This document shows, piece by piece, positions 19,352 to 25,683 of a DNA stretch of 64,000 bases. The stretch is from an uncultured Candidatus Bathyarchaeia archaeon (GTDB lineage: Archaea; Thermoproteota; Bathyarchaeia; 40CM-2-53-6): positions 55,210 to 119,209 of the forward strand of contig CAYMZN010000001.1 in assembly GCA_964394935.1 (NCBI GenBank). The letters are read 5' to 3'. The translations under genes and the position numbers were made by a program. The notes under the pieces were generated by a model. That model saw only the letters and a list, made by a program, of their open reading frames with translations. It ran no database searches and was not told the origin of the DNA. Numbering within the stretch: the stretch's first letter is position 1; the number at the start of each line of letters is the position of its first letter.

Positions 19352-20205
19352 TCATGTCTGCAGGGTTCCTTTGACCAGTGTCGTATCGTATCCGAGCGGT
19401 AGAAACAGATTGACAACTGACGAGATCAAGAGTTTCACGTACGCCTCTGCATCGTAGCCGATTGATTCCTCAAATAATTCGGAGGGGACAGCGCGTTTAC
19501 TTTGCATTGTTGCTCTATCAGCGGTTACTATGTAGCGAATGCTCTGCCCCGCGTGAATGTATCCTCCTTCTCTCCGTAGTTGTTGAGCAGCAACTACTTG
19601 ATGGCTGAAGCTTTTGTATTCTTCAGGTGATTTGCTCAACCTCTTCTCGAGTGTCAGCTTCTCGGCAGGGACTTCGCCGCTTCTAATCATGCGTATGTAC
19701 TTCCTTGTCACTTCAAGCGCTTGCGGGATGAGTTCGCGAAGTTCTATCGAATTCGACGCACGCGAAAGAAGGATTAGGATTTCTCTTTGACAGTCGCCGA
19801 CTATGCCTGCTGTGTCATGGCGTCTGAGATCGATCCCACGGGTCTTCATTGTTCCGTCTCGGAAGATGCCGTAGTATCTATTCAGCACAGGGATGCGAGG
19901 GTTGGTCCTGGAATTTAGGAAGACTATCCATTTGTAGATTCCTTCGAAACTTATCGGCAGGTCTAGTTCCGTTTCGATCTCGCGGCATAAGTTATGGTAT
20001 TCTTGTTCTGATGCGTTCTCTTTTCTGAGCCAGAGCGAGTCCACTATCCCGTGGATGACGTGGAAGCCTCTTGATTCAGCGATGGCACTTGCCCTTTGGA
20101 GAGCTTCCCGTGCGTAGGCGCAGGTTGCGATGTGTGCATCGATCTTGCCAAACCGCGCGTTCTTGAACCCAAGGTAGCCGACTGCTCGGTTTCGATTTAC
20201 TCATC
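19352..20205 (-). CDS. family-B DNA polymerase homolog (inactivated), C-terminal fragment after frameshift
   Basis: The frame is open upstream of the annotated GTG with no start codon and reads NRNRAVGYLGF (motif B-like), then GFHVIHGIVDS where YGDTDS (motif C) is expected, then KTRGIDLRRHD (the KxxGxxxxRRD region). Confidence 0.65.
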
Positions 20206-20211
20206 GAGCAC

Positions 20212-21618
20212 CTATGAGCAGACTAGGATCCATTTGAGCGCGGCTTGGCGTTGATCGTATCGCGTTCGTGTCGGAGGATCCTTCGTCTCATTCCTCCAGC
20301 GTTTGTACTCGGCTCGTTTCTTGAGTAGGACCTCAAGTGAGGCGGGGACGATCCCCTGCCGGCGTTTACATATGCGGAAGCCAACCTCTGGAACACGGTT
20401 GGGCGAGTCGGGACAGCATTCGCAGTTTACGGTCTCACCGCTCAGGTTGTTCTTCGACATGATCGTCGGATACAGTGAAGAGAAGTCGACTTCGCCAACC
20501 CAATCGTGAACTCCAAACTTTGGCTCATAGACGAACCCGCCTCGGTCGGCTAGGAGAAGATTGTTTCCGTCCTTGAAGTCTTCAGGTTGAGACTTGTTCC
20601 AAGGAATCATTACTCCTCGCTTTATGGCGTGGTAGATCTGGAGCGACGACATGCTTGTTCCAATCGTACTACGCGAGGCACGTTGGAGTGGGATGATGCA
20701 TGTTCGGGCAACCTCTATGAGACCTTCGAGACCGCAGTCGGTGTCGATGAAGCTGTTGCTGTAGTCTAGGTGTAGTCGGCCCATTAGGCGGGCTGCGGTG
20801 CTACGGTAGTAGATTCTTCCGTAGCTGAAGTAGCTTCGGCCTGTGACCTCGAAGACCTGCAGCGGTGCATGCTCTCTGCCAAGTACAAGTTTGTGGAGTG
20901 CGACGTGTTCTTTGGCGCGTTGGGCTATGTACGGGAAGATGAAGAAGTCGCCGCCGTCGGTGCGTACAATATCTGGATCGAACTCGTTGACCGCCCTAAC
21001 AAGGCCTAGTAGTTTTTCGGCTTCCGAGCCTGAGTCGATCCGTCTTTCCTCATGCTCCATAGTGATGGTTATGGTGTCGATCGGGTCGTTCAGAGTCGGT
21101 ATACGCTTGCTCGTCTTCGTGCTGACGGTCAGCTTGGCGATCCTGAATGGTGGGACCTCATATTTTGTGGATTCGGATGAATCGAGAAGACGCCAAAATA
21201 CGTGGTCGTTGTGGGTTTCGGCTTCGACATAAGCTAATGGGAAGAGATCTTTCTGGTAGAGGTACATCTGTGATGATGGTATGTCAACATCATATGGTCT
21301 GTACTTGCCTCCGTAGGCTGCAAGCCGCTGGATTTTCTGTGCTAGTGCTGTAGCTTCACGGTCAGAGAAGACCTTGATCTCAAGAACCTTAGACAGTGAT
21401 GAATCGTTTGGCCTCTCGAACCTCTCAACGAAACTGTATCGGTCACTGAGTTCAGGCCGAGCGACAAGGCCCAGCAGGTCGGTGAAGTTCCCGGCGATGT
21501 GGATCCTCGGGGTCCACTCGTCTACAAGTCTTACGCATTCACCGTCGCGTTTCTTCAGCCAAATAACCATGCAGCCTGATTTTGGGTAGAGGTCGAAGAG
21601 CCAGCCTTCTGTCTTCAC
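20212..21618 (-). CDS. family-B DNA polymerase homolog (inactivated), N-terminal exonuclease + palm motif A fragment
   Basis: Motif A [12 protein letters not shown] is intact. Exo I is DVD instead of DIE, and Exo II is [11 protein letters not shown] instead of NxxxFDxxY. The ORF ends inside motif B ([12 protein letters not shown]...stop). Confidence 0.75.
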   Translation of the reverse strand: [468 protein letters not shown]

Positions 21619-25233: not shown

Positions 25234-25254
25234 GTGTAATCGAATTGAACGCCA

Positions 25255-25683
25255 TCAAGTTTTGAGGATAAGCAATGAGGCGGACGAAAGTGTATGGAGA
25301 GACTCATGAAAGTTATTCTTTAACGAGCAGCCCGGAGGGCGCGCTTTCCAGAAGACAGTCGAAGACTGTTTCCCTTGCAATAGGCTCTGAGTCTCCTCTG
25401 GAGTGAGGGTCTTCTCGATTCCCAATCTGCAATGCCAATCATAGAGGCAATGCCTAACCAGCTTCACTATCTTGCCTCTGAGATGCGACGGAACCACTTC
25501 CTTGGGAGTTCGTTTCGAGAAACGTGTAGCCTCGAGAGTGAAAATGCACTTCTCCCATGTCTCGCCGTCTCTTGCTACGGTCTCGCCGGTCTTCTCAACC
25601 GCAACGACTCTTCCTTTCAGTCTTCGGCCGCTGGCAGTCAGGGAACTCACTTGGGATACTTCTTGGCTGCCCATTGTTTGCAT
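25255..25683 (-). CDS. hypothetical protein
   Basis: ORF 22 bp upstream of radA; overlaps the corrinoid-protein gene 3' end by 37 bp. No motif recognised. Confidence 0.25.
   Translation of the reverse strand: MQTMGSQEVSQVSSLTASGRRLKGRVVAVEKTGETVARDGETWEKCIFTLEATRFSKRTPKEVVPSHLRGKIVKLVRHCLYDWHCRLGIEKTLTPEETQSLLQGKQSSTVFWKARPPGCSLKNNFHESLHTLSSASLLILKT

Follow-up and report, generated by a model that had tools for sequence, protein, structure and literature searches.

A putative bulge-helix-bulge intron in motif B of polB2, in the PolB2 operon of a Bathyarchaeia archaeon

What interrupts the DNA polymerase gene polB2 of Bathyarchaeia? In a 64,000-nt stretch of contig CAYMZN010000001.1 from an uncultured Candidatus Bathyarchaeia archaeon (the whole stretch is hereafter called the window), a string of genes runs on the minus strand from 25683 down to 19352 and ends in polB2, a family-B polymerase gene in which an in-frame TAG and a change of frame between two open reading frames (ORFs) disrupt motif B. 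We propose that polB2 is probably interrupted there by a splicing-endonuclease intron, folded into a motif of the bulge-helix-bulge (BHB) type and spliced as described below, and that the gene string is the PolB2 operon. This reading is drawn from sequence. What has been established computationally is the identities of the genes, a BHB structure that is conserved and covaries, the empty sites, and the purifying selection acting on each of the two exons; together with the ORF that excision restores, inserts at the same site in 39 loci, and frozen synonymous sites, they argue for an intron of this class. The intron is absent from an earlier account of the same DNA, made from the letters and their ORFs and referred to here as the original prediction.

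Motif B of family-B polymerases has the form KxxxNSxYG. In the window the first polB2 ORF (listed as 20212-21618, minus strand, 468 aa) ends within this motif, and the frame of the second (listed as 19352-20044, minus strand, 230 aa) opens a few codons upstream of the motif's remainder. Removal of a 32-nt insert (20182-20213, minus strand; AGGUGCUCGAUGAGUAAAUCGAAACCGAGCAG) at the canonical cut positions yields a continuous 744-aa ORF with the sequence seen in uninterrupted homologs. Exon 1 (20214-21618) then comprises codons 1-468 and the first base of the Phe469 codon, and exon 2 (19352-20181) supplies the other two bases of that codon, followed by codons 470-744 and the stop. The full BHB motif, exon flanks and intron together, spans 20175-20225. 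An exon-exon helix, UAGUC/GGCUA, is followed by a U.Y mismatch; the 4-bp central helix, GCUC/GAGC, lies between the 5′ bulge AU|A and the 3′ bulge AG|U; and on the intron side there is an inner helix, GGU/ACC, closed by a hairpin. A BHB is defined by a 4-bp helix between two 3-nt bulges on opposite strands, with the splice sites carried by the bulges, and in the geometry of tRNAs, where the central helix finishes with nucleotides 34 and 35, the cut at 37|38 falls after the second bulge base (PMC4090602). Because the canonical rule cuts after the second bulge base, the exons are predicted to be ...UCAU and UCGGCUAC.... The geometry is that of a relaxed BHB: the 5′ half is canonical and the 3′ half is relaxed (bulge A-N-U, the U.Y mismatch and a 5-bp outer helix). 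Relaxed motifs are cut by the alpha2beta2 endonucleases of TACK archaea (PMC4090602; PMC2738675).

The same interruption recurs across the lineage. We fetched 41 metagenome and 48 species-representative genome loci by way of iRadA, the RadA paralog encoded in the same string, and hence blind to the polB2 junction, which 55 of them contain. Of the 55 Bathyarchaeia loci, 39 have an insert at precisely the same position; these originate in many independent projects, and SPRUCE peat, the Ga0315xxx sediments and Microflora Danica soils are among the sources of intron-bearing contigs. Another 13 show the exact empty site TCA T|TC GGC (with tgc and tac flanks, or synonymous variants), and 3 have one extra base at the junction. 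The inserts are 20, 21, 23, 24, 26, 31, 32 or 33 nt long and fall in all classes modulo 3, so that the downstream frame shifts accordingly, and each length restores that frame only if it is cut at the same two positions. Every insert starts with A-G after UCAU, which always places an in-frame UAG after codon 468, and every insert ends with A-N before U-Y, which means that the codon re-formed at the junction is in all cases UUC or UUU. In another genome, with an iRadA of 74% identity, the break falls at the same base, and the insert is of 31 nt (compared with 32 nt in the window). Cutting at the bulges restores the conserved frame, and orthologs without the intron have precisely the empty site. 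The homologs of the spliced product agree: the motif KW[IV]LVCSFGYLG is uninterrupted in 105 of the 120 best (56-62% identity, 720-820 aa), another 14 of the 120 carry an intein after KWILVC, and in the wider PolB2 family every one of the 150 best 50%-identity representatives has Phe as the junction residue. In virtually every locus both exons are intact, and exon 2 is open for its full expected length (273-299 codons; 275 in 17) wherever a locus reaches the stop. Pairwise ratios of nonsynonymous to synonymous substitution rates (dN/dS) in exon 2 have a median of 0.13, and dS reaches 1.3. No start codon is conserved in exon 2: for 18 loci the first in-frame ATG, GTG or TTG falls within motif C, 45 codons downstream; for 14 it falls within the insert, and for 3 it lies 110 codons downstream.

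The folded structure is likewise maintained. Across 34 distinct junction sequences all four pairs of the central helix form in every case, with both U-A and U.G seen; the first three pairs of the inner helix form in 34, 33 and 34 of the 34, with G-C/C-G and U-A/C-G swaps; the five pairs of the outer helix form in 31-34; and the 5′ bulge AUA is invariant. In the alignment of the window's own clade (23 sequences) 94.5% of cells pair, as against 14-40% when the partner strand is slid by 1-3 columns, and double changes occur in four pairs, a result reached by 0-2 of 500 shuffles. RNAalifold independently recovered a 3-nt bulge, a helix, the AUA bulge and the inner helix. Codon choice beside the intron is frozen as well: the Cys codon is TGC in 34/34 intron-bearing alleles and in 9/14 intron-less ones (Fisher p = 0.001), and the Ser codon is TCA in 34/34 and 7/14, respectively (p = 5e-5), both values being without phylogenetic correction. 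A covariance model of the element found exactly one match per locus in 570 kb and none outside polB2. When both strands of the window (128 kb) were scanned blindly for BHB geometry combined with the fusion of two long ORFs, the polB2 site was recovered along with two others, at 41032-41058 on the plus strand and 5496-5607 on the minus strand. We regard these two as chance matches; their fused translations look non-coding or spurious, having either a non-coding look or an implausible basic tail. Scans for tRNA genes and Rfam families found neither in the window, and the window does not encode the splicing endonuclease. One surveyed locus, L075, has on its minus strand (1117-1208) a 92-nt tRNA gene with a 13-nt intron at a BHB (CCUC/GGGG, bulges UAU and AGA). 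ARAGORN assigns it as Glu(CUC), and the BHB register suggests the anticodon UCU, position 33 then being C, not U. We did not count this tRNA intron as support for the cut rule; any register gives a 7-nt anticodon loop.

How old is the intron? Its form differs between clades: it is 31-33 nt with an extra hairpin in the clade of the window, and 20-26 nt in other clades, where it reads A-GCCG(C)-loop-(G)CGGC-GRGC-AA. A 21-nt deletion variant retains the core alone. In a neighbor-joining tree of 47 PolB2 sequences the intron-bearing genes occupy four deep clades with intron-less genes nested among them, a pattern consistent with an ancient intron that has been lost precisely several times. Of the 150 PolB2 representatives mentioned above, the cluster nearest to the window is the only one that ends at ...KWILVCS, and the intron seems confined to this Bathyarchaeia PolB2 group. 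The three loci with a single extra base (L062 6908-6915, L064 6517-6524 and L065 2797-2804) carry it at the intron site, reading tgc TCC TTT C ggc tac. Because both halves of these polB2 genes stay under strong purifying selection (omega 0.06-0.12 at dS 0.24-0.42), the 1-nt-insertion alleles imply a need for a +1 shift during decoding, or its equivalent. The sequence UUU-CGG-C resembles a +1 frameshift heptamer, on which tRNA-Phe would re-pair from UUU to UUC. Related PolB2 genes host an intein at KWILVC|S, 4 nt upstream of the intron site, in some cases with a LAGLIDADG domain; in L069 and L071 a 1599-nt insert lies between KWILVC and SFGYLG, and the intein proteins include P0131, P0134, P0135, P0146 and P0213. 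Depending on the lineage, then, one and the same motif hosts an intein, an intron or a frameshift. Some Bathyarchaeia-type radA-iRadA-polB2 contigs (L059, L060, L074, L081, L084, L089 and L091) sit in metagenome-assembled genomes labelled Methylomirabilota, Dormiibacterota, Acidoferrum, Acidiferrales or "bacterium", which suggests bin contamination or mislabelling.

To what system does the interrupted gene belong? A conserved three-gene operon encoding PolB2, iRadA and a helical protein of ~90 aa (arCOG07300, or PPB2) is present in archaea and some bacteria (Makarova et al. 2014, PMC4104785; Timinskas et al. 2025, PMC11791011). Its most frequent published order is iRadA-PPB2-PolB2, its products have been modelled as a PolB2:iRadA:PPB2(3) "mutasome", and Bathyarchaeota operons are already listed in the supplement of the more recent paper (PMC11791011). 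The string in the window is this PolB2 translesion-synthesis operon, lying directly behind a canonical radA. Six minus-strand ORFs are listed between 25683 and 19352: a small ORF, radA, the RadA paralog, an 84-aa protein and two DNA_pol_B pieces. In transcription order they are spaced by 21, 36 and 4 nt, followed by a 4-nt overlap. The order iRadA-PPB2-PolB2, adjacent and co-directional, is found in the window and in related loci; the same gene order is repeated in dozens of independent Bathyarchaeia assemblies, far above chance, and homologs of these genes are labelled Bathyarchaeota or Bathyarchaeia almost throughout. We identify the operon from this order and spacing and from the MGRT arm of PPB2, the RAD51 fold without a P-loop in iRadA, the IVD motif C and lost exonuclease site of PolB2, and a match to the published PolB2 signature. 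The original prediction had described a packed minus-strand string with an intein-containing radA beside a paralog, a helical 84-aa protein and a PolB homolog, and all of these genes lie where it had placed them; the co-localization across genomes on which it had staked its proposal is borne out by the assemblies just mentioned. It had counted "four or five" genes, an uncertainty that is explained by the PolB homolog, which is listed as two ORFs with the in-frame TAG and frame change between them. Its statement that the arrangement is not an established operon is contradicted by the two publications cited above.

The protein assignments are as follows. The PolB2 pieces match Pfam DNA_pol_B and DNA_pol_B_exo1. 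The N-terminal domain, an exonuclease domain that has degenerated, and motif A are all encoded in exon 1, along with the first part (half) of motif B; exon 2 encodes the remainder of motif B, motif C (HGIVDS) and the thumb. Alignment with P. abyssi PolB shows IVD for DTD in motif C, a retained motif A Asp (DFSSLYP), and Ile for Asp in Exo II, that is, replacement of the first Asp of DxD and loss of the exonuclease active site. The second Asp of motif C is retained, IVD parallels the IID of S. islandicus, and HGIVDS is at least 90% conserved in 107 PolB2 relatives. The signature ALKWILV.SFGYLG...H.I.DSLW matches entries, including bacterial PolB2, in the supplement of PMC11791011. PolB2 operons are reported to be damage-inducible, and PolB2, once thought dead, to be needed for targeted mutagenesis in S. 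islandicus (PMC11791011). The polB2 gene of the window is not dead. The exonuclease and motif C substitutions noted in the original prediction are real, but the catalytic death deduced from them does not follow, given the two retained Asp residues and the S. islandicus result. A candidate FxxA (Rad51-type) iRadA-binding motif in PolB2, PPFRIAKL, was dropped, as it is not conserved in the family alignment.

The RadA paralog iRadA (21874-22899, minus strand, 341 aa) is an ATPase-dead member of the RadA/Rad51 family in which an N-terminal zinc ribbon replaces the helix-hairpin-helix (HhH) domain. It matches Pfam Rad51 (E 8e-8), with the RadA/Rad51 core at residues about 120-330, and its alignment to the core of the window's RadA (hhalign probability 92%) sets GYPF--SRS opposite GEFGAGKS, leaving no P-loop. 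An AlphaFold2 model (pLDDT 76) has RAD51 and RadA as its best Foldseek matches (E 1e-16, root-mean-square deviation ~2.5-3 Å), so that the protein combines a RadA/Rad51 fold with the absence of both ATPase motifs and an N-terminal HhH. The zinc-ribbon cysteines, C33-x2-C36 ... C60-P-x-C63 (22711-22803, minus strand), are invariant across an alignment of 35 diverse homologs. We found 410 homologs of iRadA, of which those with names are Bathyarchaeia. Neither operon paper (PMC4104785, PMC11791011) uses the word zinc or ribbon for iRadA. The loss of Walker A and the gain of a zinc ribbon had both been recognized in the original prediction; its term "RadB-like" does not hold, since RadB is marked by an equivalog match and a short RecA core with an intact P-loop, and iRadA has no P-loop and scores 17 bits against the TIGR02237 cutoff of 172. 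In one clade (L078-L085 and L087; for example, L079 8806-9660) iRadA has no N-terminal zinc ribbon and there is no radA close by; the gene upstream of iRadA in L079 encodes an ArgK/MeaB-like GTPase. The zinc ribbon of iRadA and the adjacency of radA co-occur.

PPB2 (21615-21869, minus strand, 84 aa; arCOG07300 / DUF8156) begins MGRTVPSWR, which is the MGRT arm that PMC11791011 describes as conserved, including Arg3 and Arg9, and its AlphaFold2 model consists of three helices (8-25, 28-53 and 57-83). Its size, its three helices and its N-terminal arm are those of the ~90-aa family, and its stop overlaps the polB2 start (GTGA). The assignment to DUF8156 combines a precomputed PF26485 match with the MGRT motif, the Pfam set searched in our analysis being one without DUF8156. 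A tblastn search of the interval from iRadA to polB2 finds no PPB2 in some lineages, and in L058, L060, L062, L064 and L065 the gap of about 155 nt is too short for it; in other lineages polB2 lies on the opposite strand, convergent with radA-iRadA. Loci with either arrangement are L058, L060, L062, L064-L066, L069, L071-L073, L075, L076 and L086.

The radA gene (22936-25233, minus strand, 765 aa) encodes a canonical recombinase and one intein. Its product scores 418 bits against the cutoff of 259 for the NCBIfam RadA equivalog NF003301, and matches Pfam Rad51 (E 2e-81), HHH_5, Intein_splicing and LAGLIDADG_3. The 442-aa intein (23566-24891) carries the last two of these domains and is inserted within Walker A, with boundaries GAGK|C...HN|SQ; its removal restores GEFGAGKS and leaves a 323-aa extein with the HhH N-domain, RecA core, and Walker A and B motifs of a canonical RadA. 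Most close relatives, such as L002, have an intein-free 323-aa radA, and L088 carries at the same site an intein 62-72% identical to that of the window. Among the 66 loci with at least 1.1 kb upstream of iRadA, which are phylogenetically related and do not represent independent events, a canonical radA lies directly upstream of iRadA in 50 (gap 11-68 nt), lies 4.85 kb upstream in 6 with an extra RadA-like and PolB-like pair between, and is absent in 10; 8 of these 10 have an iRadA without the zinc ribbon (e.g., L079). The enriched neighbors named in the main text of PMC11791011 do not include radA, and the word radA does not occur in the portion of its operon table available to us. Adjacent radA and the zinc ribbon of iRadA appear to be lineage-specific features. 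In the six loci with the extra pair (L056, L057, L059, L070, L074 and L088) a second, very divergent RadA-like gene (27-33% identity) stands between radA and the zinc-ribbon iRadA, together with a PolB-like gene of ~30% identity to PolB2 (for example, L088 5868-9004), and the main polB2 is shifted 2-4 kb downstream of PPB2. The pair may be a tandem second PolB2-type module.

Several observations weigh against the reading we favor. Thermodynamic folding prefers a 5-bp central helix, with an extra U-A pair and the 3′ bulge moved by one base, and the frame is restored only by the 4-bp register; cutting at the 5-bp register breaks it. The base beside the 3′ bulge is always in a U.Y mismatch, so the 3′ half of the motif is relaxed and non-canonical. 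Moving both cuts by one base (the +1 register) is also in frame and would give Tyr. We disfavor this register because the 5′ bulge is unambiguous under the canonical rule, the empty sites equal the product of the unshifted (k=0) register, and the residue is Phe throughout the family. A 166-aa query across the junction retrieved no contiguous, near-identical spliced product (at least 80% identity) from a collection of 5.8 billion proteins; it matched exon-2-only ORFs and more distant intron-less genes, and we graded this result uninformative rather than negative. Finally, we infer from spacing that radA is co-transcribed with the operon.

Could polB2 be broken in some other way? A gene annotated as ORFs of 468 and 230 aa, separated by an in-frame TAG and a frame change, has the look of a decaying, "inactivated" polymerase. 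We consider it exceedingly unlikely that polB2 is such a pseudogene: 39 loci are interrupted at the same base and have no other disruptions, with exon 2 at full length wherever its stop is reached; dN/dS in exon 2 is low at substantial dS; and the insert itself has a conserved, covarying structure. Another possibility is that the two halves are translated separately and then assembled, as in the split PolB of Methanothermobacter, perhaps following faulty excision of the intein that sister lineages carry 4 nt upstream. Split archaeal PolB genes do exist and have been attributed to erratic intein excision (PMC4104785), related PolB2 genes have inteins at KWILVC|S, and gene callers have produced ~70 clusters of exon-2-only ORFs. 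A split polymerase is nevertheless very improbable, as exon 2 is without a conserved start codon, the break divides a codon inside the most conserved motif, and the insert ends always rebuild Phe (U+UC or U+UU) and agree with the empty sites at every base, which a deletion scar would not do. Bypass of the insert by the ribosome, or a shift of frame, would dispense with RNA splicing altogether. As in T4 gene 60, a stop directly follows the take-off codon and a hairpin comes next, and the three sister species with UCC UUU C GGC need a +1 shift or its equivalent. However, no landing codon matches the take-off codon UCA, and the codon before GGC varies (GUC, AUC, AUU, CUC, UUC), so that hopping would put variable residues at the family's invariant Phe; it would also leave the 4-bp helix, the two 3-nt bulges and the frozen synonymous sites unexplained. 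We therefore hold translational recoding of the insert to be very unlikely. Reading of UAG as pyrrolysine was rejected, since a second in-frame stop (UAA) follows and most insert lengths shift the frame.

A different question is what the string is for. The original prediction saw in it an unrecognized, purely non-catalytic accessory module for recombination, with two dead paralogs beside an active recombinase. That view draws on an iRadA without a P-loop, on the loss from PolB2 of the exonuclease site and the first Asp of motif C, and on the radA that lies directly upstream in most loci and is not a neighbor named in the published account, as noted above. That the genes form a functional module has held up. 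A purely non-catalytic role for it now seems highly doubtful: the three-gene module has been published and is widespread in archaea and bacteria, in S. islandicus a PolB2 with the same change in motif C is nonetheless reported to be necessary for damage-induced mutagenesis, and the AlphaFold models of PMC11791011 favor binding of PolB2 to iRadA and not to RadA.

We propose that expression of the BHB-interrupted polB2 would proceed as follows. The genes of the PolB2 operon would be transcribed, and the archaeal tRNA-splicing endonuclease would cut after the second base of each 3-nt bulge, at UCAU|A and AG|U, as the structure suggests. The exons would then be joined by an RtcB-type ligase. The predicted spliced junction is ...GCUCAU|UCGGCUAC..., that is, ...CUAGUCUGCUCAU joined to UCGGCUACCUU. 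Splicing would remove the UAG after codon 468 and create a Phe codon (U+UC), and a 744-aa PolB2 with the family-typical motif could then be translated, whereas unspliced mRNA would yield only the 468-aa fragment. If the published models hold here as well, PolB2 and iRadA, one copy of each, would join a trimer of PPB2 in a damage-tolerance polymerase complex, in which iRadA might play a structural, RecA-like role. That a single site in the gene of a mutagenic polymerase carries three different interruptions invites the speculation that the interruption of motif B acts as a gate, such that full-length PolB2 is made only upon regulated, endonuclease-dependent splicing of the mRNA. Bathyarchaeia would then control damage-induced mutagenesis in the manner of HAC1/XBP1 splicing in eukaryotes, possibly in coordination with RadA from the same transcript. 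We think such a gate rather unlikely.

Upstream of radA, the string begins with a small ORF (25255-25683, minus strand, 142 aa) that is conserved at 57-68% identity in related loci (tblastn). In relatives the family is 112 aa long, ends in ...SSTVFW and has a median dN/dS of 0.19; in the window, where the usual stop has been lost, the ORF continues for another 30 codons, overlapping the 3′ end of a corrinoid-protein gene (25647-26324) by 37 nt. The ORF is not in the published PolB2 module, and searches of Pfam and NCBIfam gave no match. The genes that flank the operon (17492-18685, minus strand; 25647-26324, minus strand; 26510-28296, plus strand) include a Fae-Hps fusion, a B12-binding corrinoid protein, a DeoC-type aldolase and PFK. 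Their order around the operon is kept in related genomes (L001, L002), with synteny over at least 15 kb.

If our reading is correct, polB2 would be just the second archaeal family of protein-coding genes for which a need for mRNA splicing is known. Protein-coding introns of the tRNA machinery are almost unknown in Archaea, and archaeal mRNA splicing would then extend beyond a one-gene curiosity, to an old and widespread intron in the DNA-damage polymerase of an abundant uncultured lineage. Since a single site has alleles with the intron, with the empty site, with an intein and with a frameshift, polB2 offers a clean system for studying the gain and loss of introns. Surveys of repair genes would undercount polB2 in Bathyarchaeia, where it is called as two fragments or treated as a pseudogene. 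The conserved link between radA and the zinc-ribbon iRadA provides a testable connection from recombination to the PolB2 complex.

Finally, how does this locus compare with known systems? With the PolB2 mutasome (Sulfolobus Dpo2; PMC4104785, PMC11791011) it shares the same three families in their commonest order and tight packing, the MGRT arm, an iRadA without an ATPase site or HhH, and a PolB2 with xxD for DxD and a decayed exonuclease domain. It differs in the putative BHB intron of polB2, in the N-terminal four-Cys zinc ribbon of iRadA, in the canonical radA immediately upstream in most loci of the lineage, and in that no orc1/cdc6, SRAP or DUF72 gene is among the annotated flanking genes. 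A parallel between the PolB2 complex and E. coli Pol V (UmuD′2C-RecA-ATP) has been drawn (PMC11791011), as both pair a translesion polymerase with RecA-family and small accessory subunits. Pol V, however, is a Y-family and not a B-family polymerase and its RecA is the active recombinase itself, whereas the window encodes a dedicated dead RadA paralog and the active radA is merely adjacent. The PolB inteins of Thermococcales and the split PolB of Methanothermobacter likewise interrupt a highly conserved polymerase motif, by protein splicing or division into two genes; the interruption described here is a 20-33-nt non-coding RNA structure, putatively removed at the RNA level. Our literature search found no description of a BHB intron in polB2 or in Bathyarchaeia. 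As of 2020, cbf5 was the only coding-sequence case of an archaeal BHB intron (PMC7714728). The cbf5 intron of Crenarchaeota (Watanabe 2002; Yokobori 2009, PMC2738675) is, like that of polB2, a short intron in a coding sequence with an often relaxed BHB, patchy gain and loss among related species, and a host in the TACK group; the host gene here is instead a DNA polymerase, in a Bathyarchaeia lineage, and splicing, demonstrated experimentally for cbf5, is predicted for polB2 from its sequence. The operon itself is already known, and the polB2 intron is best placed with the archaeal BHB introns of pre-mRNA.

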